Shown here: one piece after another, positions 1,345 through 63,544 of the stretch
Layout: each line of letters starts with the position of its first letter
How positions within the stretch are numbered: position 1 is the stretch's first letter
From: Nannocystaceae bacterium ST9
Lineage (GTDB): Bacteria; Myxococcota_A; Polyangia; Nannocystales; Nannocystaceae
Assembly: GCA_048320885.1 (NCBI GenBank)
Contig: JBLWFJ010000001.1
Location: forward strand, 1,349,642 to 1,413,641
DNA length: 64,000 bases
Direction: 5' to 3'
Program-made: the position numbers and the translations under genes
The notes under the pieces: generated by a model
Told to the model about the DNA's origin: nothing
The model's input: only the letters and a program-made list of their open reading frames with translations
Databases searched by the model: none

Positions 1345-2633
1345 CGCGAGTCTCGAAGCGAGCGCAACTCTACCAGGCCCGGGCCGAACTCGACACGGAC
1401 CAGGTGGGGGTGCGCCCAGCCGAGCTCGATCGTCCGGGCCTTCGACCCGCTGAACACCTCGATCAACCAACGGCACCAGCCGGGGTGCGGAGCGTCGTTC
1501 CCCGAGCGCGCGGGCTCGAAGCGCACCCACATCCAAGGCAGCTTGTGACGTAGGCTCCACTGCTTGGCGAACTCCCGCATCTGCCGGGCCACCGCGCGCT
1601 GGTTGACGTCGCTGAGGTAGGCCGTGACGTAGGTGTTGTAGGCGATCACCGGGGCGACCGGGTGATCGGGCAGCGCCGATTGGAGGAAGTCGACGAGCTC
1701 GTCGGGCAGCTCCATCGTGCGCAGCTCGGCTGGGACCAGGCTGCGCTCGCGCACGTGGCGGCGATGGACCTCGATGCCCTCGCGCATCCGCTCGAGCCGA
1801 CGTCGCTGATCGCCCCAGACACAGGCTTCGAGGGTGACCTCGGCGTCCGGCTTGCCGAGATCGATCGGGTTGATGTCACCGCCGACCCGCCGCAGCACCT
1901 CGGGTCCGGCTCGCTCGGCCTCGCCGAATTCCTCGAGCGCCGGCTGGGGCCCGCTGCACGGGATCAAGAAGGGCTCGCGCTGACCGCCCTTGCGCGGGTC
2001 GAAGCCACGCCCGAGCCGCAGTCGCGCGCTGCGGCTCCACGCGAGTTCGAACGCACGCTGCTCGGCGTAGAGATTGAGCCCCGCCGCGCATCCGAGCTCG
2101 ACGAGGTACACGGCCTCCGCCCCAACGCACACGGCCGGCAACAACCAAGCGATCCCCCGCGAGGTCTCGTTGCTCTGCACCCGCCAGGTCTTGGCCCGCT
2201 GGAAGAGCTCGTCGCCGAGCCGCTCGGCGGCCCGCAAGAGTCGACCCGCGAACTCGGCATCGAAGGGATCGCGCGCGTCCGGCCCGTCGCCCTCCGGCAC
2301 GGTCGTGTAGTAGGGCCGCAGCTCGACCACGCGCGGGTCGTTTTGCAGCACGTACCAGTGCAGGCAGGCGTGGAGGCGCAAGGTCGGCTCGAGATCGTTG
2401 ATCCACGCGCCTTCGAGGCTGGGGTCGCCGACTTCGAGCAGATCGACCACGCGCTCGGCCGCACGCTGGACCGCCTCGGGGTTGCCGAGCTCGCGCCCTC
2501 GTGCGTCGGGATCGCTCAACCAGCCGACGACCTGCTCGAGCAGAGCGGCGGTCAACGGCGAATAGCCTCGCACGAACAACGCTTGGAGGCGAAGGCTCGA
2601 GCAGTGTCGGTCCCATGCCGGGTCGCGCGGCAT
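1341..2633 (-). CDS. DUF2332-family protein (function unknown)
   Basis: ORF 1341..2858 trimmed to ATG 2633 (MPRDPAWDRH...). Texts GYSPLTAALLEQV, VELGCAAGLNLY and GGDINPIDL...EACVWGDQRRRLERM match my recollection of DUF2332. Divergent from the aminotransferase across a 161-bp spacer. Confidence 0.65.
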   Translation of the reverse strand: MPRDPAWDRHCSSLRLQALFVRGYSPLTAALLEQVVGWLSDPDARGRELGNPEAVQRAAERVVDLLEVGDPSLEGAWINDLEPTLRLHACLHWYVLQNDPRVVELRPYYTTVPEGDGPDARDPFDAEFAGRLLRAAERLGDELFQRAKTWRVQSNETSRGIAWLLPAVCVGAEAVYLVELGCAAGLNLYAEQRAFELAWSRSARLRLGRGFDPRKGGQREPFLIPCSGPQPALEEFGEAERAGPEVLRRVGGDINPIDLGKPDAEVTLEACVWGDQRRRLERMREGIEVHRRHVRERSLVPAELRTMELPDELVDFLQSALPDHPVAPVIAYNTYVTAYLSDVNQRAVARQMREFAKQWSLRHKLPWMWVRFEPARSGNDAPHPGWCRWLIEVFSGSKARTIELGWAHPHLVRVEFGPGLVELRSLRDSR

Positions 2634-2794
2634 GTCGTCCCTGTACCACCAATGTCCCGCATTCCCAACTGCCGCGTCGTCCACGTGACCGACGACCACT
2701 GGTCTTTTCTGCACCGTGAATGCGATTCGAATAGCGCCTGACCCGCGGACGATGGCTTGCGGGGTGAGGGGAGTTCTGAAACCATCCCCCGACC

Positions 2795-3967
2795 GTGAAG
2801 GGCCGGTTGCGACCTGTCGACTATCTGGGCTGGGCGCTGACCGTCCCTGCCCAGGCACGTTTCGACCTCACGGGCAGCGGTGTCCCGGACACCTGCGGAC
2901 CGGGGTCGCTGGTCGGCCGCGAAGGGGTCGGCGAGGACGAGCCGCCCGGGTTGCCCGGTCCGGACTGGGCCCCCGATCTCGCGCTCGCCGATCTCTGCCG
3001 CCGCGATCATCGACCCGAGCTCCACGCCGACTTCCTGCGGGTGGTGGCCGCCCGCTACGGCGTCGCGCCGGAGTGCGTGGTCCCGACGCTGGGCGCCAGC
3101 CAAGCCATCCCGCACGTGCTCTTCGCCCTCGCCCGCCCTGGCGATCACGTGATCGTCGAGCGCCCGACCTACGAACCGCTGCACCGCGTCCCGGAAATGT
3201 TGGGGCTCTCGGTGTCGAGGCTCGAGCGAAAGATCGAGGAGGGTTGGAGTCCGCTCCCCGATCGACTCGCTCGCCTGCTCACGCCCAAGACCCGGGCCGT
3301 GATCCTGACCAACCTCCACAACCCCACGGGCGTCGCCATGCGGACCGAGACCCTGGTCGCGATTGGCGAGATGGCCGCGCGAGTCGGAGCCGCGGTGCTG
3401 GTCGACGAGGTCTACCTCGACTTCGCGTTCGACTCGTCGGGCGAGACCCAGCCCTGGCGACCCGCGGCGGTCGCGATCGACAACGGCGTGAGCTGGTCGT
3501 CGACCACCAAGTGCTTCGGGTTCTCGGCCTTGCGCGCCGGCTGGGTCGTCACCCGCGACCTCGAGCTCGCTCAGGCCCTGCGTGCGTCCGCGCTCTATTT
3601 TCATGTCGACACTCCCCTGGCCTCGCTCGCCTTGGCCACGCGTGTGATGCGACACGCACCCGAGTTGGCGGCCCGCGCCAACCGATCGATCGAGCGTGTG
3701 AGAACGGTCGTCGATCGCTGGATCGCGAGCGAGCCCCGTGTGACCTGGATCCCACCCTCCGCGGGCCAGACCGGCCTCGTCCGCCTGCCCGATCTCATGC
3801 AGGACCTCGTGTTCGCCCAGCACCTGCGCGAGCGCTACGACACCCAAGTCGTCCCCGGCGCAATGTTCGAAGCCCCCGGCGCCGTCCGGCTGAGCTTCAA
3901 CCTCCCGCTCGAGGTGCTCGAGCAAGCGCTCGCAAATTTCTCCGCCGCGCTGGATGACTTGGCATGA
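2795..3967 (+). CDS. PLP-dependent aminotransferase, class I/II
   Basis: GTG start, 390 aa. Motifs LTNLHNPTGV and VLVDEVYLDF, plus the PLP-lysine motif SSTTKCFG. Confidence 0.85.
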   Translation: MKGRLRPVDYLGWALTVPAQARFDLTGSGVPDTCGPGSLVGREGVGEDEPPGLPGPDWAPDLALADLCRRDHRPELHADFLRVVAARYGVAPECVVPTLGASQAIPHVLFALARPGDHVIVERPTYEPLHRVPEMLGLSVSRLERKIEEGWSPLPDRLARLLTPKTRAVILTNLHNPTGVAMRTETLVAIGEMAARVGAAVLVDEVYLDFAFDSSGETQPWRPAAVAIDNGVSWSSTTKCFGFSALRAGWVVTRDLELAQALRASALYFHVDTPLASLALATRVMRHAPELAARANRSIERVRTVVDRWIASEPRVTWIPPSAGQTGLVRLPDLMQDLVFAQHLRERYDTQVVPGAMFEAPGAVRLSFNLPLEVLEQALANFSAALDDLA

Positions 3968-3976
3968 GCTCCAATA

Positions 3977-4001
3977 GGGAGGCCGCGCCGCGCGGCCTCC
4001 C
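3977..4001 (+). terminator. GC-rich hairpin after the aminotransferase stop (outer end of the left arm)
   Basis: GGGAGGCCG-cgccgcg-CGGCCTCCC starts 10 nt after the TGA at 3965-3967. A second hairpin, CCTCAGCTCGC..GCGAGCTGAGG, follows. No U-tract. Confidence 0.4.
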
Positions 4002-4158
4002 CCTCAGCTCGCTCCGCGAGCTGAGGAACCCCCTCCATGCGACCCTGCCTACGTGGGGCATTGCGTGGTTCCCCTGCTCGGGCCGTCTCGCCCTCGCGGG
4101 GAATGGACAACGGGTTCGGCTTCGCCTCCCCTCGCTCCCTGCTTCGGCGAGATCCCTT

Positions 4159-4316
4159 CGCCGAAGCAGAACCAACCTGCGCCGAAGCAGAACCAACCTG
4201 CGCCGAAGCAGAACCAAACTGCGCCGAAGCAGAACCAGCCTGCGCCGAAGCAGAACCAAACTGCGCCGAAGCAGAACCAAACTGCGCCGAAGCAGAACCA
4301 AACTGCGCCGAAGCAA
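4159..4316. repeat. 21-bp tandem repeat, 7 full plus 1 partial copies
   Basis: Head-to-tail units CGCCGAAGCAGAACCA(A/G)(A/C)CTG start at 4159, 4180, 4201, 4222, 4243, 4264 and 4285, with a partial unit at 4306. There are no spacers, so this is not a CRISPR array. Confidence 0.9.
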
Positions 4317-4462
4317 ACGACCCTCCGCCGAAGCGAGCAAGGGGAGCGAAGCGAACCCGCTGTCCATTCCCCGCGAGGGCGAGACGGCCCGAGCAGGGGA
4401 ACCACGCAATACCCCAAGTAGGCAGAGCCGCGTGGAGGGGGTTCCTCGAGCGAAGCTCGAGG

Positions 4463-4485
4463 GGGAGGCCGGCGGACGGCCTCCC
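4463..4485 (-). terminator. GC-rich hairpin after the OMP gene stop (outer end of the right arm)
   Basis: GGGAGGCCG-gcggac-GGCCTCCC mirrors the hairpin at 3977-4001 and lies 11 nt downstream of the minus-strand stop at 4496. Confidence 0.4.
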
Positions 4486-4495
4486 TATTTCAGCC

Positions 4496-5239
4496 TCAGA
4501 ACCGCCACTCGACGATCAGCGGCAAGATCTGGATCGGCAGCGAGAACGCCGGATCCTTGTCGATCCCCTGGTTCGGCGGATGGTTGCGGTGGATCATCAG
4601 GCTCGGCCGAAATTCGACGTCGAGGCCGATCGCAAGCTCGCGCAGCAGGAAGAGCCGCAGGCCGACGCCGGCTTGGAAGCCGAGGGTCCAGCTGAGCTCG
4701 CGGCTCTGCTCGCGGGTGCCGTAGAGGTTCGGGTACTTCCAGAATCCGCCGGCCAGGCCGCCGCGGAAGATCGGGACCAGGAAGGGCGCCTTCTCGATGT
4801 AGAGCTTGTAGGTGTAGCCCAGCCAGACGTCGGCGCCGGCGACCGTGCCGGCGTCGCAGGTGCCGGTCTGGTTGTCCATGCCACACGAGGGCATGCGGAA
4901 GTCCTTGTACCCACCGCGATCGAAGAGCCCGGCGACGCCGATGTGAACCCAGTGCGCGCGGTGGATCTGGCGGTCGTACTGGATCCCGATCCGACCGCGC
5001 GGGACGTAGCCGACGATCCCGACCTGAACGGGCGCGAGCAGCGAGATCGCGTTGCCTCCGTACACGAAGTCCGGCAGCTTGAACCCGGTGTCCTGGCTCG
5101 AGGGGTTGGGCTTGCTGGCCCCGCTCGTCGGCGGCCCGGCGAGCGCCTCCGGGGCGAGCGCGAGCAGGATCATCGCGACGAGCAGAGGAAGGATCCGCTG
5201 GGCACGGGCTCGAAGTGGACGGGGGAGCGGACGTGACAT
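4496..5239 (-). CDS. outer-membrane beta-barrel protein
   Basis: Signal peptide MSRPLPRPLRARAQRILPLLVAMILLALAPEALA. Alternating hydrophobic beta-strand text. C-terminus ...LPLIVEWRF ends in an aromatic residue. Confidence 0.7.
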   Translation of the reverse strand: MSRPLPRPLRARAQRILPLLVAMILLALAPEALAGPPTSGASKPNPSSQDTGFKLPDFVYGGNAISLLAPVQVGIVGYVPRGRIGIQYDRQIHRAHWVHIGVAGLFDRGGYKDFRMPSCGMDNQTGTCDAGTVAGADVWLGYTYKLYIEKAPFLVPIFRGGLAGGFWKYPNLYGTREQSRELSWTLGFQAGVGLRLFLLRELAIGLDVEFRPSLMIHRNHPPNQGIDKDPAFSLPIQILPLIVEWRF

Positions 5240-5913: not shown

Positions 5914-6374
5914 CCACGCTCGACACGACCTCGAAGGATCCCGAGTGGATGCGCGCGGCCGGCTGGATCGGTCGCTTGGTCGCGGGCGGCGTGTTCGTGT
6001 ACGCGGGCGGGCTCAAGCTGCTCGACCCGGCCGCGTTCGCGCAGGACATCGGCAACTATCAGGCCTTCCCCTGGTGGACCTGGAACCTCGCCGCCGCGGT
6101 CGTGCCGATCGCCGAGATCCTCGCCGGGCTCGCCCTGATCAGCGGCATCAAGCGGCGCGCCGGCGCGATCGTGCTCGGCTCGCTGACGGTCGCGTTCCTC
6201 GGCTTGATCGCCTCGGTGATCGTCCGCGGCATCGACTTGAACTGCGGCTGCTTCGGCGACGCGGCCGAGGCCAGCGCCGTCGGCTGGCCGCTCTTCTTCC
6301 GCGATCTCGCGCTGCTGGTCGCGATCGTCGCGGCCTACCTGCCGGCCGAGGCTCGCTCTTCGACCACGCCCTGA
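5910..6374 (+). CDS. MauE/DoxX-family redox-associated membrane protein
   Basis: ORF 5793..6374 trimmed to ATG 5910 (ATGA overlap with the rhodanese stop). Four TM helices and an LNCGCFG motif. The rhodanese-MauE pairing is common. Confidence 0.75.
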   Translation: MTTLDTTSKDPEWMRAAGWIGRLVAGGVFVYAGGLKLLDPAAFAQDIGNYQAFPWWTWNLAAAVVPIAEILAGLALISGIKRRAGAIVLGSLTVAFLGLIASVIVRGIDLNCGCFGDAAEASAVGWPLFFRDLALLVAIVAAYLPAEARSSTTP

Positions 6375-7354
6375 GCGTCCTCGGCCAGCGCCGCCGACTC
6401 GACCCGCGCAGCCGACTCAGACGCCGGCTCGGCCACCGGAGGGGGCCGGCCGATCAGGCTCCGCGCACGCGACCCGAGATCCCGCGCGAGCTTGGTCAGC
6501 GCGGCATAGTCGGAGTCCGACAAGAGCAGCATCTCCGCGCCGATCATGATCACCGCGAAGCTGTTGAGCCCCATGAACGAGAAGATCCCGAGGTGGAAGG
6601 AGATCGCACAGATCACCGCCACCCGACGCGGCCACGGCTTGCCGAAGAAGTAGACCCAGGGGAACGCGAGTTGGAGCATCAGCGGGGCCCAGGTCATCAG
6701 GCCGAGCAGGTAGCGGTTGTTCCAGATCAGCGCCCCGAACCCGGTCATGCCGAAGTCCTCCGAGGCGAGCACGTAGTAGAACGCCGTGCCGTTCTGCCAG
6801 TACTTGCCCGGCACCTTGGCGATGCCGGCGGTGAAGTACATGATCGAGATCTGGATCGCGCAGGCCAAGAGCGCGGCGTTGTGCAGCGTGATCCGAGTCC
6901 GCGACATCGGCTTGCCCTGGGCCGGCGAGTTCCACAGGTCGGCGAAGATCGCGAAGATCATGATGATCTCGGCCAGGTTGTCGCCGCCGTCCCAGAGCGC
7001 CGGACAGCGTGCATGCAGGCTGTGGACGACCCACCAGGCCAAGAGCGTTCCGACGTGGCCGCCCAAGCCGACGGTCCACAGGCCGAGCACGACCAGACCG
7101 GCGAGGTACCCGAACCACTGCCAGGCGTTGCTCCCGGACAGCGCCATGTACGAGTAGTGGATCCGGCCGAAGCTGGCGGCGAAGCCATCGTAGGGAAAGA
7201 TCGACCCCGGGCCCATCAACAGGTCGAACTGGCCGATGAGCATCGTCAACTGCAAGAGCAGCGCGGTGCCGACGATGACGCGGAACAGCACCGCGCCCCG
7301 GAGTTGGCGAGGCTCCTCGCTGAAGGAGTCCAAGACACGCGTGATTTCATTCAT
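6335..7354 (-). CDS. HTTM-domain (vitamin-K gamma-carboxylase-like) polytopic membrane protein
   Basis: 339 aa, multi-TM. N-terminal text LRGAVLFRVIVGTALLLQL, plus ...HARCPALWDGGDNLAEIIMIFAIFADLW... and ...NGTAFYYVLASEDFG... fit HTTM as I recall it. 8-nt overlap with the upstream DUF5819-like gene. Confidence 0.75.
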   Translation of the reverse strand: MNEITRVLDSFSEEPRQLRGAVLFRVIVGTALLLQLTMLIGQFDLLMGPGSIFPYDGFAASFGRIHYSYMALSGSNAWQWFGYLAGLVVLGLWTVGLGGHVGTLLAWWVVHSLHARCPALWDGGDNLAEIIMIFAIFADLWNSPAQGKPMSRTRITLHNAALLACAIQISIMYFTAGIAKVPGKYWQNGTAFYYVLASEDFGMTGFGALIWNNRYLLGLMTWAPLMLQLAFPWVYFFGKPWPRRVAVICAISFHLGIFSFMGLNSFAVIMIGAEMLLLSDSDYAALTKLARDLGSRARSLIGRPPPVAEPASESAARVESAALAEDAQGVVEERASAGR

Positions 7355-8165
7355 GGAAGTCGACCTCGGTCGGAGTCGGCGACGCGATCGGACCCGCTGG
7401 TTCCGTCAGCCCGGCTGCTTTCTGTTCGAAGTAGAGATCGAGGTACTCGCGGGCGCGGACATCGAGATCCTCGATCTCGGCGGGCCGCAGCCACGGCACG
7501 CTGACCGCGGTCGGCTCCTCGACGTGGTCGGGATCGTTGCGGTACGAATAGGGCGTGATCTTGCGGGTGACGATCCGGTAGCGGATGCGATCGACCTCGC
7601 CGACGCCATCCTGCCGACAGTAGTGCCAGATCAGGTGGTAGGCCGTGCGGCTCGAGGCGATGTTCTCGGCGACCTTGTGGGCGATCAGATCGTTGATCGC
7701 GTCGCGCTGCTCGGGCGGGGCCTCGTCGAGGCTGGCGATCAACTGATCGAGCAGGACGTCTTGACCGCCCAAGGTCGCGAGCACCGCGGCTTGCTCGATC
7801 CGGCGCAGGCGACCGGCGGGCCCGAAGCGGCGCCCCGCGTGGCTCTCGAGCAGCTCGTCGCCGCGGCTCAGCCACTCGGTCTCGACGCCGTCGCGATCGC
7901 ACTGGTAGTCGAGCCGGCGATCGAGCAGCGGCGGATCGGGGGCGAACAGAGTCCAGCGCTGACGGAAGAGCGGCTCGAGGTACGCGAGCGCCTCGTTGCG
8001 CCAGTGCAGACCGACGACGCTGACCGAGTTGAGATAGACGGCCGTGATCGTGAAGTGCACGGTCAAGACCGCCAAGCAGGCGACCGTCAGCGCTCGCGTG
8101 CGCCACGAGGGGGCCGCGAGCTGGGGTGGATTCGACGCGACTCGGGGATCGGGTTGGCTCGACAT
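7347..8165 (-). CDS. DUF5819/SdpA-like partner of the HTTM protein
   Basis: 272 aa with one N-terminal TM (ALTVACLAVLTVHFTITAVYL). The motif FRQRWTLFAPDPP matches what I recall for DUF5819 proteins encoded next to bacterial HTTM genes. The call rests partly on position and needs an HMM check. Confidence 0.6.
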   Translation of the reverse strand: MSSQPDPRVASNPPQLAAPSWRTRALTVACLAVLTVHFTITAVYLNSVSVVGLHWRNEALAYLEPLFRQRWTLFAPDPPLLDRRLDYQCDRDGVETEWLSRGDELLESHAGRRFGPAGRLRRIEQAAVLATLGGQDVLLDQLIASLDEAPPEQRDAINDLIAHKVAENIASSRTAYHLIWHYCRQDGVGEVDRIRYRIVTRKITPYSYRNDPDHVEEPTAVSVPWLRPAEIEDLDVRAREYLDLYFEQKAAGLTEPAGPIASPTPTEVDFHE

Positions 8166-8175
8166 GACTCTCGGC

Positions 8176-59899: not shown

Positions 59900-60672
59900 G
59901 ACCGAGCCCGAGACCGAGACCGAGACTGGTCGATTTTCTCCCCACGGCCCGGCGACCGCTGCTTCGAGAGCGGACGCCGGGCCGAGCTGCGCTTGGAACT
60001 CACCGCCGCATCGCCACCCAGCACGCCGAAGCGATCGGGGTGGCTACCGCAATTCCCGAGCATCAATCTCCACGACGACCCCGCAGCCATCCTCGAGTTC
60101 GACAGACCTGCGGGCCGATGGCGTCGAGGCCCGCATTCATTACTTTCGTTCGCGCGCACCTTCGTGTTCGCGAGCGCCGATCTCGGCCGCACCGCACAAT
60201 GCCGATTCGTAGGTGTCGACACGACATCCATGGTTTGGGGGACGCCGAGTAGGCATCGACATGACTCCTGGCAGGTTGTCGGAGTGCGATGTACCGCCCG
60301 GAGCACCTCGAAAGGACTCTTTTGGTACCTCTCCCCATGCGCATGCCACTCACTTCCGCTTGCTACACCTGCATCGGGCTCGGTGGAGCCTCTCGCATCG
60401 TGAGTTCGCGTACACGCACGAGAAAAACGCGACGGCCAAATGGCCGGATGCCCAAAAGGCCAGTGGCATGAGTCATAGCGAAGAATCGCATTTCCGCGCC
60501 GGTCATTTTCAATACACACGGCGCGAGCGCATGCCCGTGTACGTCTGTACAAATCGCGGCAGAGTGGATTTGCGTTTTCAGCGACCCTGCAATTAACGAC
60601 GCATCGCGAATCGCATCATTGCGTGAACCCTCGGCTGCTTGCCACGACACATCCTCGTGGCAGGTTGCAATC
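59900..60672. other. ~770-bp lower-GC stretch without a credible ORF
   Basis: All six frames give short or compositionally odd ORFs with no G/C third-position periodicity. A hairpin TGCCACGA-cacatcc-TCGTGGCA (60639-60661) abuts the GGCAGG just upstream of ATG 60673. Confidence 0.5.
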
Positions 60673-62028
60673 ATGATCGCACGTTCGACATCGACGATGG
60701 CCTTCGCACTGCTCTTGACCGCCGGTTGTGATGGCGAGCCGATCGACGAGCTCCGCTCGTCGCAAGGCCATCACGGTGGCGGGCACGGCCATGGCGGAGG
60801 CCATGGCGGGCACGGCCACGGCCATCATCACGGCAATCACGGTCATCATCACGGCAATCACGGTCATCATCACGGCAATCATCATGGCCATCATGGCCAT
60901 CATGGCCACTGCACGCAGCTCGACATCGGCGATCTACTCGAGGGTTACGACGAATCGACCAATCCTTATACCGATCCGGCGATGTGGCTCAGCGGCCCCG
61001 ATTCGAGCGACGATTTCGTACTTTCCGTGAACTTGGATACCACGATCGTCCATCCAGACCTCTCGACCGAGGTGATTCATCCCGAGCGGCCCGAGGACCC
61101 CGACCTCGACATCTTCTTCGTCCACCCCACGGTCAACTTGAGCCCGGCGCTCGGCAACGATGATTTGTCCGATCTGGCCAACACCAAGGCGTTCGTGGCC
61201 GAGAGCGTCGCGCGCTTCTCGACGATCGGCCGGGTGATCACGCCGCTCTATCACTCGGCGACCGCCGGGGCGTTCCTGCCTGGAAATCGTGCCGTCCGCG
61301 ACGCTTACTTCGAAATCGCGTACCAGGACGTCGAGGACGCCTTCACCCACTATCTGGCCAATCACTGGAACGGGCGAAAGCTCGTGCTGATGGGGTTCTC
61401 GCAGGGCAGCATCATGACTCGAATGCTGCTCCAGCGCTTCATCGCGGGCCACCCCGACTTGATGAGCCGAGTCGTGGTGGTGATGCCGCTGAGCGGCGAT
61501 TTCCAGGTCGACTCGGTCGACTTCGTGCCGCCCTGCGAGGACGACGATCAGACCGGCTGCTACGTCACCTATCATGCGTTCGTGGACGGATTTGGGCCGA
61601 GCGACACGCCCCCGTCCACGGTCGGGGAATGGGTATGCAGCGACACGGCGGCCTGCACCCCCGTGACCGACGATGGCGTGCTCTCGATGTCCTATTTCTC
61701 GCTTCCGCAGGTCCCGGGCGCGCTGCCGGGCGACGCGCTGGCGGACATCCCGATCGAAATCGACACGCCCTTCATGGCATTCCCCGAGTTCTACGCCGCC
61801 GATTGCGTCGACGAGGGTGGCGAGTACCTCCAGGTCCAGCAAGCGGACCTCGACGACGAGCGCTGGACGCCGATCGACTACACGCACCCCTTCGCGTCGA
61901 ACGCCCCGCCCTTCGGCCTGGGATTGCACATCTTCGACTTCAGCCTGGGCATGGGTGACCTGCTCGAGCTCGTCGAGGACAAGGCCGACGAGCTCGACGA
62001 CGAATCGGCCTTCTGTGTGCTGAAGTAG
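60673..62028 (+). CDS. lipoprotein with 47-residue His/Gly tract plus DUF3089-like alpha/beta-hydrolase domain
   Basis: ORF trimmed to ATG 60673: MIARSTSTMAFALLLTAGC (lipobox). HHGGGHGHGGGHGGHGHGHHHGNHGHHHGNHGHHHGNHHGHHGHHGH. Then DIFFVHPT, ITPLYHSAT and LMGFSQGS (GxSxG). Confidence 0.7.
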   Translation: MIARSTSTMAFALLLTAGCDGEPIDELRSSQGHHGGGHGHGGGHGGHGHGHHHGNHGHHHGNHGHHHGNHHGHHGHHGHCTQLDIGDLLEGYDESTNPYTDPAMWLSGPDSSDDFVLSVNLDTTIVHPDLSTEVIHPERPEDPDLDIFFVHPTVNLSPALGNDDLSDLANTKAFVAESVARFSTIGRVITPLYHSATAGAFLPGNRAVRDAYFEIAYQDVEDAFTHYLANHWNGRKLVLMGFSQGSIMTRMLLQRFIAGHPDLMSRVVVVMPLSGDFQVDSVDFVPPCEDDDQTGCYVTYHAFVDGFGPSDTPPSTVGEWVCSDTAACTPVTDDGVLSMSYFSLPQVPGALPGDALADIPIEIDTPFMAFPEFYAADCVDEGGEYLQVQQADLDDERWTPIDYTHPFASNAPPFGLGLHIFDFSLGMGDLLELVEDKADELDDESAFCVLK

Positions 62029-62061
62029 CGCGTGCTGAAGTAGCGCGTGCTGAAGTAGCGC
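62017..62061. repeat. 15-bp tandem triplication that contains the stop codon
   Basis: GTGCTGAAGTAGCGC x3 (62017, 62032, 62047). The first copy encodes the terminal V-L-K-stop of the His-rich lipoprotein. Confidence 0.9.
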
Positions 62062-62071
62062 CGAAGTCCGC

Positions 62072-63544
62072 TCAGCGCGTGCGAATGCAGCGAACCAAGA
62101 GCGCCGGGTCGGCCGCGGGCTCGACCGCCTCCCACTCGGCGGTCTGGGTGTCGACGAAGGTCTGCTCGGCCGCGCCCTCGCTGGTCCAGAAGGGGCCGGG
62201 ACCCGCGAACCACAGGTAGGTCGCGCGGATCTCCGCGAGCGAGGGCAGGCGCCAGCCGGTCTCGCCCTGCTCGGGATCCCCGGGCACGCGCAGCGCCTTG
62301 CAGAACGCCTCGGCCTCGCGGCGATCGACGGCCTCGGCCACGCCGAGGAAGAGCTCGTAGTTGCCGTCCTGGCGGAGCAAGGGCAAGCGGACGGCCGGCT
62401 TGGGCGAGCTCAGGATCGTGTCTTCGCCGGCGAGGTCCTGCGCGCAGCGAAACCCGACCAGCGAGTGCTGGGCGAGCGCCCGCGTCCGCTCGAAGCTCTC
62501 TTTGGGCAGCGTGCTGGCCAGCGTGACGCCGGCCGGGAAGTCGTAGGCGCCGCCGCGCTGACCCGCGCGGCCGCCCTTGATGACGTGGCGCTTGCCGAGC
62601 TCCCCGATCACGCAGGTCGGATCGGCGGCGCGCTCGGGCCCGCACACCAAGGTCCGCAGGTAGGTCTGCTCGGCGCGCGCGAGCGGGCCGTCGGCGGCCC
62701 GGAATTCGCCGCGCAGGTAGACCTTCAAGTTGGCCTCGGGATCGAACTCGTCGGCGACCCACTCCATCGAGTTGCCGCCGAAGCCCTTGAGCCCCCAGTA
62801 GCTGATGTCGAGCGGATCGTAGCCGACCGGGCCGATGGTCTGGCCGATCTCGTCGCGCAGCTCGTTGCCCCACGGGAACGCCCAGGCCTCGGGCCCGCGC
62901 GCGGCGAACTCCCACTCGGCCTCGCTCGGCAGGCGAGCGCCTCGCCACTCGCAGTAGTCGGCGGCCTGCGAGTGCGTCACGCAGGTCTGCGGGAAATTTT
63001 CGAGATCCTGGCGGCCGATCTCGCGATCGGGACGACCGTCGCTGCCGTCGAGGCACTTGGCCTCGCCGCACTCGCCCGCGGCCACGCACTCGGCGTAGGC
63101 GCGCCGGCTGATCTCGAACCCGTCGATCCAGAAGCTCGGCAACGCGTCCTCGCGCAGCGGCTGACCCGACCAGTGGATGTAGGGGAATTCGCGGTTGGCG
63201 TCGGCGTCGTAGCGGACCGGGATGTCGCCGCGCAGGAACGCACCGGCCGGGATCTGGACCATGCCGCCGTAGGGCAGCTTGCGGGTGTTCAACACCACGC
63301 ACGCGCCCTCGGGATCGATCCCGCGACCGCGTCCGCACTCGTCGCTCGGCTCGGCCGGCTTGGTCTCGATCTCGGTCTGCTCGCCGACGTAGGGCGAGCC
63401 GGCCGGGAACGAGTGCGGATGATCGTAGAAGGCCAGCGCGGGATCGTGGCCGCCCTCGGCTTCGCAGCCGAAGGGTACGCAGCCGAACGAGGCGATCGTG
63501 AAGAGGACCAGGGCCCGAGGGGCTCGCGGCGATTGGGTGGTCAT
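62072..63544 (-). CDS. FGE-sulfatase (SUMF1/EgtB/PvdO)-domain lipoprotein
   Basis: N-terminus MTTQSPRAPRALVLFTIASFGC. THSQAADYCEWRGARLPSEAEWEFAARG, FPWGN, GNSMEWV. A second partial FGE-like unit lies at the C-terminus (EAEAFCKALR...GWRLPSLAE). Confidence 0.8.
   Translation of the reverse strand: MTTQSPRAPRALVLFTIASFGCVPFGCEAEGGHDPALAFYDHPHSFPAGSPYVGEQTEIETKPAEPSDECGRGRGIDPEGACVVLNTRKLPYGGMVQIPAGAFLRGDIPVRYDADANREFPYIHWSGQPLREDALPSFWIDGFEISRRAYAECVAAGECGEAKCLDGSDGRPDREIGRQDLENFPQTCVTHSQAADYCEWRGARLPSEAEWEFAARGPEAWAFPWGNELRDEIGQTIGPVGYDPLDISYWGLKGFGGNSMEWVADEFDPEANLKVYLRGEFRAADGPLARAEQTYLRTLVCGPERAADPTCVIGELGKRHVIKGGRAGQRGGAYDFPAGVTLASTLPKESFERTRALAQHSLVGFRCAQDLAGEDTILSSPKPAVRLPLLRQDGNYELFLGVAEAVDRREAEAFCKALRVPGDPEQGETGWRLPSLAEIRATYLWFAGPGPFWTSEGAAEQTFVDTQTAEWEAVEPAADPALLVRCIRTR

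Follow-up and report, generated by a model that had tools for sequence, protein, structure and literature searches.

In enterobacteria, pneumococci, and neisseriae, small repeats that are structured and interspersed have received much study. Repetitive extragenic palindromic (REP) sequences are single hairpins of 20 to 40 nucleotides (nt), present in hundreds of copies and served by a dedicated RAYT transposase, and the ends of MITEs (miniature inverted-repeat transposable elements) are short (~20 to 30 bp), match a parent insertion sequence (IS), and come with demonstrable target duplications. REPs act as terminators and mRNA stabilizers, attenuation of read-through and stabilization of the upstream mRNA having been shown, e.g., for REP325, and the presence of a REP between two convergent genes correlates with raised expression of the pair (bioRxiv 10.64898/2026.03.23.713779). 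In the BOX element, complementary end modules form a long stem, and the internal module is a variable-number tandem array that is barely part of this stem; BOX is overrepresented between convergent genes and is thought to act via the RNA structure of cotranscribed mRNAs (PMC3049150). SPRITE is a dispersed repeat that places a strong hairpin at gene 3′ ends, and a 3′-hairpin role has been proposed for both SPRITE and BOX (PMC3049150). In the literature searched, we found no description of small structured interspersed repeats in myxobacteria. The present study concerns a ~517-bp composite palindrome, located at positions 3973 to 4489 of a 64,000-nt stretch of Nannocystaceae bacterium ST9 (contig JBLWFJ010000001.1; hereafter the window, GC content of ~69%).

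We propose, with fair rather than firm confidence, that this palindrome consists of two tail-to-tail copies of a noncoding, hairpin-rich interspersed repeat of the Nannocystaceae, which came to occupy what was originally a gap of a few base pairs between two convergent genes. The repeated module is noncoding, self-pairing by prediction, dispersed, insertion polymorphic, expandable in its tail, and confined to convergent 3′ regions.

The inverted arms and the hairpins of the module

A preliminary description of the locus had reported long inverted arms that are reverse complements of each other apart from scattered differences, and had named a far lower complementarity under a proper alignment as grounds for giving the idea up. 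The alignment upheld the palindrome. When positions 3960 to 4500 were compared with the window by blastn, the arms (3973-4149 and 4326-4489) proved to be complementary at 86.5% over 178 columns (E = 5e-48), with an ungapped core of 96 nt at 94% (4023-4118 and 4352-4447) and a stretch of 50 nt that is identical between them (4060-4109 and 4361-4410). The next-best inverted repeat anywhere in the 64 kb, with arms at most 800 nt apart, is merely 28 nt long at 82%. The palindrome is not due to chance, and an assembly artifact was rejected because the arms differ at many positions.

Both arms start at their outer ends with AATAGGGAGGCCG...CGGCCTCCC, which forms a first hairpin (HP1), followed by a second one (HP2). 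This order had been recognized earlier; the hairpins had, however, been placed immediately after the flanking stop codons (3965-3967 and 4496-4498), from which the arms are in fact separated by 7 to 8 nt. The module as a whole measures ~165 to 200 bp and is made of two GC hairpins, a conserved multihairpin core, and a GCTTCGGCG tail. At its outer end, (A)TAGGGAGG opens HP1, a GC stem of 9 to 12 bp with a variable loop, and HP2 usually takes the form CCUCGAGC-UUCG-GCUCGAGG. The core of ~90 nt consists of a GAACCC/GGGTTC closing stem around a variable HP3 and a near-invariant HP4, and the tail reads ...CCCCTYG..CTNGCTTCGGCG before it passes into a G/T-rich linker.

Computational folding of the region as RNA and as DNA, which the preliminary description had recommended, predicted strong structure for both (RNA, -390 kcal/mol on the + strand and -432 kcal/mol on the - strand; DNA, -226 kcal/mol), each with a z score of ~-24 relative to shuffles. 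Predicted energies of the individual hairpins range from -19 to -24 kcal/mol for HP1 and from -13 to -20 kcal/mol for HP2. Among seven aligned arms from two genomes, pairing is high (94% by RNAalifold and pair counting, both strands), and all 10 predicted stem pairs of HP4 are invariant, one unpaired interior position (C/T) being variable; the sole further HP4 change in any allele is a loop change in L030, one of the metagenomic copies presented below. The sense strand of the adjacent gene is favored by the cUUCGg loops of HP2 and of the tail, as well as by G-U-compatible differences in HP3, and the minimum free energy is slightly lower on the antisense strand. As for coding capacity, open reading frames (ORFs) crossing the element gave no Pfam match, and its six-frame translation matched none of 5.8 billion proteins at E ≤ 1.

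Dispersed copies, insertion in ST9, and tail expansion

An exact scan for AGGGAGGCCG-N(1-9)-CGGCCTCCCCCTC over 185,579 species genomes (one genome per species) retrieved five contigs of the Nannocystaceae metagenome-assembled genome (MAG) ST_AS_metabat.41 (JAMHUH01), in which blastn and nhmmer detect at least six arms on 5 contigs with E values of 1e-29 to 1e-52. A single arm beside an ArsC/Spx gene was found among the matches listed by a pseudoprotein scan, on a metagenome contig (L012) that starts at TAGGGAGG, and other metagenomes supplied further alleles of this ArsC-linked copy (L030, L031, and L033). The comparison with relatives that had been suggested at the outset returned copies at several unrelated loci of another Nannocystaceae genome, as well as an empty orthologous site in three relatives.

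The empty sites are evidence for insertion. The aminotransferase gene (+) and the gene for an outer membrane protein (OMP)-like product (-) do converge on the element, as had been described. In three metagenomic relatives (L001, L013, and L014), the same convergent pair has its stop codons only 7, 10, and 4 bp apart (spacers TCCGCGA, CGGTGACGGT, and CGGA, respectively), the right-flank protein being 79, 82, and 75% identical to that of ST9, and in ST9 the two genes terminate at the same residues as in all three relatives. Thus, ~520 bp were inserted between the native stop codons in the ST9 lineage.

Convergent genes flank the module at all five independent loci (ST9, L018, L025, L026, and the ArsC locus). 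In the window, ~8 of 37 adjacent gene pairs are convergent (a hand count on a rough gene list), so that five out of five is unlikely to arise by chance (a crudely estimated ~5e-4). No common function links the flanking genes, which encode an aminotransferase, an OMP-like protein, a GST, a type III pantothenate kinase, ArsC/Spx, and a membrane protein. The outer end of the arm lies 0 to 35 nt from a stop codon, and in L015 the stop codon is supplied by a TAG of the element itself. Moreover, the ST9 right arm shares 92% DNA identity with the MAG copies, compared to 74% of residues shared by the ArsC/Spx orthologues of the two organisms. This better conservation of the arm than of host genes suggests that the module is moving between lineages or is under strong constraint.

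The relationship between the two ST9 arms bears on how the pair arose. The right arm, 86.5% identical to the left arm, is nearer to the MAG copies (92%), and the identities form a mosaic by segment: HP1 and HP2 of the right arm group with the MAG copies (91 to 95%) and not with the left arm, while in the HP3 segment the two ST9 arms group together (88%, versus 68 to 80% to the MAG copies). Given this mosaic, the ST9 pair is not a fresh fold-back duplication; it goes back either to two insertions or to an old pair whose arms were partly homogenized.

The 7.5 copies of a 21-bp repeat reported between the arms were recovered by Tandem Repeats Finder (TRF), which delimits 4155-4334 with period 21, 8.6 copies, and 93% matches, and by a pattern search, in which seven units at 4159-4305 match CGCCGAAGCAGAACCAAMCTG with at most one mismatch and are followed by a half unit (shuffles give 0). 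The array does lie at the center of the palindrome, as previously stated, but it is not a neutral center. GCTTCGGCG occurs 10 times in the element, nine times on the - strand (4159-4334), running into the right arm and always in the orientation of its tail, and only once on the + strand, at the end of the left arm (4141-4149). In L026, three homologous units of ~19 bp (GCTTCGGCGCAGGTGGGGTC...) stand at the same position as the ST9 array. The orientation of the array and the homologous L026 units indicate that the array is the right arm's own tail in amplified form, and the amplification, ~8-fold, would most likely have proceeded through replication slippage. The CTGCTTCGGCGA/TCGCCGAAGCAG hairpin that bounds the array on its left is exact, in agreement with the preliminary description, and is simply the place where the tails of the two arms run into each other.

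Tail expansion is not restricted to ST9. A tandem repeat is present on the tail side of every copy, with a unit that differs by copy (26 bp × 4.1 in L025; 16 bp × 3.5, AT rich, in L018), and the number of tail units per copy is 1, ~3, or ~8. At the ArsC-linked copy, compared among strains with ArsC proteins that cluster together at ≥90% identity, a TCTGA microsatellite lies between the ArsC stop codon (CTC TGA) and the arm tail, growing out of the stop codon, and counts 0 units in L031, ~3 in L030, ~4 in L012 and L033, and 5 to 6, interrupted, in L015. This is direct evidence that arrays beside the module change their copy number quickly, obtained at the sister ArsC locus and not for the 21-mer of ST9.

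Rearrangements also occur where the arms lie. L020 retains the outer 103 nt and the pantothenate kinase gene, its opposite side being occupied by a different gene; in L033 the ArsC side is retained, and it is the outer side that has a different gene; L016 and L032 are armless and have yet another neighbor gene; and L030 has lost HP2 and half of HP1. The short-read contigs L012, L016, and L031 end inside or at the arm. L033 also carries, just outside the arm (849-879), a second and shorter hairpin that starts with TAGGGAGG as well (TAGGGAGGACGCC-C-GGCGTCCTCC) and whose TAG is the stop codon of the neighboring gene; hairpins of the TAGGGAGG type may be a smaller repeat class of their own.

Several matches were discarded. 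Seven HP1-pattern matches outside the Nannocystaceae (L019, L021-L024, L028, and L029) were attributed to chance, as they comprise the hairpin only and belong to other phyla; a viral match (L011) to the arm pseudoprotein was spurious (35%); eight single matches of the 17-mer repeat unit in viral contigs were all due to chance; and a degenerate second arm in L025 was rejected (local alignment score of 20, versus a shuffle mean of 18 and a maximum of 28). Exact scans of viral contigs gave 0 matches to the core 20-mer or the HP1 pattern, and blastn against plasmid and phage collections gave no match. A peptide-pattern scan of the species genomes missed the five contigs later found by the exact HP1 scan; negatives from peptide-pattern scans, the metagenome scan included, are not proof of absence.

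The features of the locus and the coordinates of the other copies are collected in Table 1. The right flanking protein itself has no Pfam match. Genes located further out (DUF2332, rhodanese, acyl-CoA dehydrogenase, and DUF2330) follow an order common to a relative. A second synteny difference was observed near the element: the interval from the rhodanese gene to the acyl-CoA dehydrogenase gene spans ~4.5 kb in ST9 (6335-10866), with an ORF of unknown function, a DUF5819 gene, and an 896-amino-acid CarboxypepD_reg protein, and holds only a MauE/DoxX gene in L001 (2896-3350).

Table 1. Positions of the ST9 element, its hairpins, its flanking genes, and copies found elsewhere
Feature	Position	Strand	Basis and remarks
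Class I/II aminotransferase gene, left flank	2795-3967	+	Pfam PF00155, E 2e-38; stop TGA 3965-3967; marks left insertion boundary
Hypothetical OMP-like protein ending ...WRF*, right flank	4496-5239	-	Distant homologue P0085 carries PF13505 (OMP beta-barrel); marks right boundary
Left arm, one module copy, read outer to inner	3973-4150	+	blastn; nhmmer profile from 7 arms, E 3e-37; alignment A3
HP1, left arm, GGGAGGCCGCGC-C-GCGCGGCCTCCC	3977-4001	+	Predicted -23.9 kcal/mol
HP2, left arm, 11-bp stem CCTCAGCTCGC-TCC-GCGAGCTGAGG	4002-4026	+	Sequence unlike HP2 of every other copy; still a perfect hairpin
HP3, left arm, variable hairpin	4035-4068	+	Predicted fold; ST9-specific sequence common to right arm
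HP4, left arm, TTCCCC..GGGC-loop-GCCC..GGGGAA	4069-4103	+	Alignment A3; predicted fold
Junction hairpin, left-arm tail CTGCTTCGGCGA pairing with last right-arm array unit TCGCCGAAGCAG	4139-4150 / 4158-4169		12 nt, 100%
21-bp tandem array, - strand unit GCTTCGGCGCAGTTTGGTTCT	4155-4334	-	TRF, pattern search; 7.5 good and 2 degenerate copies grading into right arm
Right arm, second module copy, read outer to inner	4325-4489	-	blastn; nhmmer profile; segment identities
HP4, right arm	4367-4401	-	Identical to left-arm HP4
HP2, right arm, CCTCGAGC-UUCG-GCTCGAGG	4444-4462	-	Loop reads as a cUUCGg tetraloop on the adjacent gene's sense strand
HP1, right arm, GGGAGGCCG-TCCGC-CGGCCTCCC	4463-4485	-	Predicted -18.8 kcal/mol
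L018, inverted pair	1904-2072, 2257-2423		blastn and nhmmer
L025, single arm	2673-2836		blastn and nhmmer
L026, single arm	4624-4790		blastn and nhmmer
L015/L027, arm at ArsC-linked locus			blastn and nhmmer
L020, truncated copy			blastn and nhmmer

Tandem repeats also occur elsewhere in the window. A perfect 15-bp repeat in three copies (GTGCTGAAGTAGCGC, 62017-62061) takes in the stop codon of a DUF3089 gene (60619-62028, +) and occupies the greater part of the 43-nt gap that precedes a convergent FGE-sulfatase gene (62072-63544, -); lying at a convergent 3′ end, it resembles the TCTGA repeat of the MAG, which is located at the stop codon of ArsC. Near the N terminus of the DUF3089 protein, a His/Gly-rich coding repeat (60760-60900; 21 bp × 3.1 at 97%, ~HGHHHGN) is possibly metal binding. 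Two adjoining arrays (11690-11777; 12 bp × 5.2 and 14 bp × 2.4) lie in a gap of ~1.1 kb, unusually low in GC, that separates the CarboxypepD_reg gene (8176-10866, -) from the acyl-CoA dehydrogenase gene (12024-13232, +), a divergent promoter region in which repeated operator sites may be present.

Alternative explanations

Several observations weigh against an interspersed repeat inserted as two copies. In ST9, the view is limited to the two arms of the window, in which blastn and nhmmer found no further copy, and the MAG copies come from one fragmented assembly, several of the "alleles" being the same ArsC-linked locus. In agreement with the preliminary description, which had seen neither an obvious target-site duplication nor a transposase, we found no transposase, integrase, or RAYT domain by Pfam in 43 screened ORFs of the window (38 of them chosen by third-position GC content) and could demonstrate no target-site duplication at the ends of the element, the empty sites of the relatives being too diverged. 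Mobility is thus deduced from distribution only. Covariation is not significant, since 133 of 500 shuffles of the seven aligned arms do as well. HP1 and HP2 are not called by a simple terminator scan and have no U-tract in the sense direction. Finally, L018 has an inverted duplication (95%) of the 3′-terminal 82 nt of the flanking membrane-protein gene outside the arms (1823-1904 and 2458-2539), with 35 extra nt on one side, so that fold-back duplication of a gene end along with its arm, instead of two insertions, may be the origin of some inverted pairs.

The first alternative is a classical MITE, which we regard as unlikely. The whole 517-bp unit with its ~177-bp terminal inverted repeats would then be the mobile entity, cut and pasted by a DDE transposase encoded elsewhere (e.g., of the IS630/Tc1 type, targeting TA); solo arms would be decayed halves, and TAGGGAGGCCG-type ends would be expected on the parent IS. 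The element is indeed noncoding, structured, dispersed, and insertion polymorphic, and TA stands on each side of both inverted pairs, whose lengths are near equal (ST9, ...CCAA-TA-GGGAGG...CCTCCC-TA-TTTC, 517 bp; L018, ...CTGA-TA-GGGAGG...CCTCCC-TA-TGAC, 520 bp). Nevertheless, TA, being self-complementary, may form part of the arms, and in L026 its place is taken by AA. There are more solo arms whose outer ends are intact (L015, L025, L026, and L033) than there are pairs, and these solo arms have neither an inverted partner nor a short inverted repeat at the inner end. Inside the two pairs, nothing but the tails is shared (the array is GC rich with a 21-bp unit in one and AT rich with a 16-bp unit in the other), and the ST9 arms differ strongly in the HP1 loop and in HP2. 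No transposase was found in the 64 kb (43 ORFs screened), and the empty sites have diverged too far for a duplication to be recognized. Of the three candidates of the preliminary description, the "MITE/REP-like dispersed element" is the one supported, through its dispersal and the empty orthologous sites; with solo arms, no demonstrable duplication, and no partner transposase found, it falls short of a strict MITE.

It is quite unlikely that each arm is a conserved structured RNA, i.e., a small RNA family, a regulatory domain of 3′ untranslated regions (UTRs), or a guide-RNA-like scaffold of a mobile element, transcribed with the upstream gene or from the array side toward HP2-HP1 as a terminator. 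The 10 invariant HP4 stem pairs, conserved across two genera with the L030 change confined to the loop, would fit such an RNA. So would the cUUCGg loop found in HP2 of five of the seven aligned arms and the tail motif, both only on the strand sense for the adjacent gene, the differences in HP3 between the ST9 arms, mostly G-U compatible on this strand, and the run of HP1 into UAUU(U) in the opposite direction. However, Rfam identified no family in the window at gathering thresholds, the best subthreshold scores (8 to 25 bits against thresholds of 44 to 100; e.g., Pxr, 16 bits against 80) being noise; no sigma-70-like promoter was found; and covariation, as noted above, does not reach significance. 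The positions of the module also differ between genomes, and its orthologous sites are empty, unlike those of a single-copy RNA gene. ARAGORN found no tRNA or tmRNA gene in the window.

Very unlikely, in our estimation, is an undescribed mobile system that homes to gene 3′ ends and of which the arm would be the RNA or DNA moiety. The arm could then serve as a terminator-carrying module or a guide-RNA-like scaffold, the enzyme being encoded elsewhere in the genome, and the copying mechanism would leave variable tail repeats, as on eukaryotic short interspersed elements (target-primed or slippage-prone synthesis). Such a system would explain the invariant HP4, the strand-specific UUCG loops, the constant TAGGGAGG beside stop codons, and the different array of each copy.

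A bidirectional terminator that evolved in place and was enlarged by local duplication and repeat expansion, another candidate of the preliminary description, is highly improbable. Part of it stands: the array is a local expansion, its units are weak hairpins followed by a U-rich stretch, the only ones flagged by the terminator scan (on the - strand), and GC-rich hairpins do lie 7 to 8 nt past both stop codons. An origin in place does not stand, as the element was inserted. The same 165-nt sequence is found at unrelated loci of another genome, 4 to 10 bp suffice between the same genes in three relatives, and the right arm resembles foreign copies more closely than it does the left arm. CCCUC follows HP1 in the sense direction, only the antisense direction offering UAUU(U), and the lack of a sense-direction U-tract sets HP1 and HP2 apart from canonical intrinsic terminators. 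An origin in place is already largely refuted by these comparisons.

Even less probable is a protein-binding array, named together with a structured RNA in the preliminary description, i.e., an iteron-like origin, partition, or regulatory site of 21-bp repeats (two helical turns) with flanking inverted repeats: seven to eight near-identical units would place sites on one helix face, but the arrays of sister copies have periods of 5, 16, ~19, and 26 bp and unrelated sequences, which argues against phased binding, neither an AT-rich unwinding region nor a replication or partition gene lies nearby, and the plasmid, phage, and viral collections gave no match.

Other known elements were set aside more briefly. 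The copies are not in an array and have no visible R′/R″ core, as integron attC sites would (a reading of the sequence and not a formal test); no reverse-transcriptase gene lies nearby, which disposes of a retron; and no constant flanking tetranucleotide points to an IS91 or Helitron-type end. An IS200/IS605-type PATE was likewise not recognized, the outer flanks CAA, AAA, TGA, TCA, AAG, TTC, and TGA before (T)AGGGAGG having no shared tetranucleotide. Read by eye and with no scan, the repeat unit has no more of a sigma-54 promoter than a fitting GG-N10-GC spacing.

Possible role and relationship to known repeats

Under the interspersed-repeat explanation, we propose that the module behaves as a selfish or neutral sequence that would survive only where it separates no gene from its promoter, i.e., at convergent 3′ ends. 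Upon transcription of the flanking genes, HP1 and HP2 would form very stable 3′ hairpins 7 to 8 nt past each stop codon, which would hinder 3′ exonucleases as well as read-through into the opposing gene. By analogy with the repeats described above, the module probably acts as a 3′ hairpin or read-through barrier.

For the genomics of the Nannocystaceae, the repeat matters in several ways. It breaks short-read assemblies (L012, L016, and L031), marks synteny breakpoints (L020 and L033 compared to L015), and can seed spurious ORFs, while its hypervariable tandem arrays could serve strain typing. Furthermore, one convergent gene pair that exists both with a 517-bp double hairpin and without it provides a natural test case of whether convergent transcription is insulated by such elements in an organism of high GC, where canonical U-tract terminators are scarce.

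Among known systems, bacterial MITEs such as Correia, RUP, and Nezha resemble the ST9 element in being small, noncoding, highly base paired, insertion polymorphic, and often TA flanked, with inverted ends, and the module is likewise noncoding and dispersed, with at least six arms in one genome (MAG JAMHUH01). The "ends" of the ST9 element are, however, whole 165-nt modules that exist alone, and no duplication or parent IS could be demonstrated for it. REP, BIME, and REPIN sequences of enterobacteria and pseudomonads are also extragenic palindromes that occur singly, as inverted pairs, or in tandem clusters in 3′ UTRs, but the ST9 unit, at 165 to 200 nt and with four hairpins, is not a single palindrome, and no RAYT (Y1 transposase) was seen in the window. 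SPRITE shares with the module dispersal and a strong hairpin at gene 3′ ends; it consists of a single 18-bp stem with a long U-rich tract, whereas the ST9 arm has four hairpins and no sense-direction U-tract after HP1 or HP2. The pneumococcal BOX (boxA - boxB(n) - boxC) is likewise a modular, noncoding intergenic repeat whose end modules enclose a variable tandem array, a likeness of architecture only. It belongs to another phylum and to an AT-rich host, compared to 69% GC here, and no sequence relationship is expected. Unlike those of BOX, the end modules of ST9 are 165-nt multihairpin units also found alone, and the array is the amplified tail of one end module rather than a separate box, with units that differ between copies.

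Since the features of MITEs, REP-RAYT systems, intrinsic terminators, PATEs, and Rfam families are absent or could be established only in part, we place the module in the general class of small structured interspersed repeats and in no named family. It is closest to the pneumococcal BOX in architecture and to SPRITE and REP/BIME in placement. Altogether, the best reading is that of a lineage-restricted small structured interspersed repeat, previously undescribed, which represents a familiar kind of bacterial 3′-end repeat and not a new kind of system.

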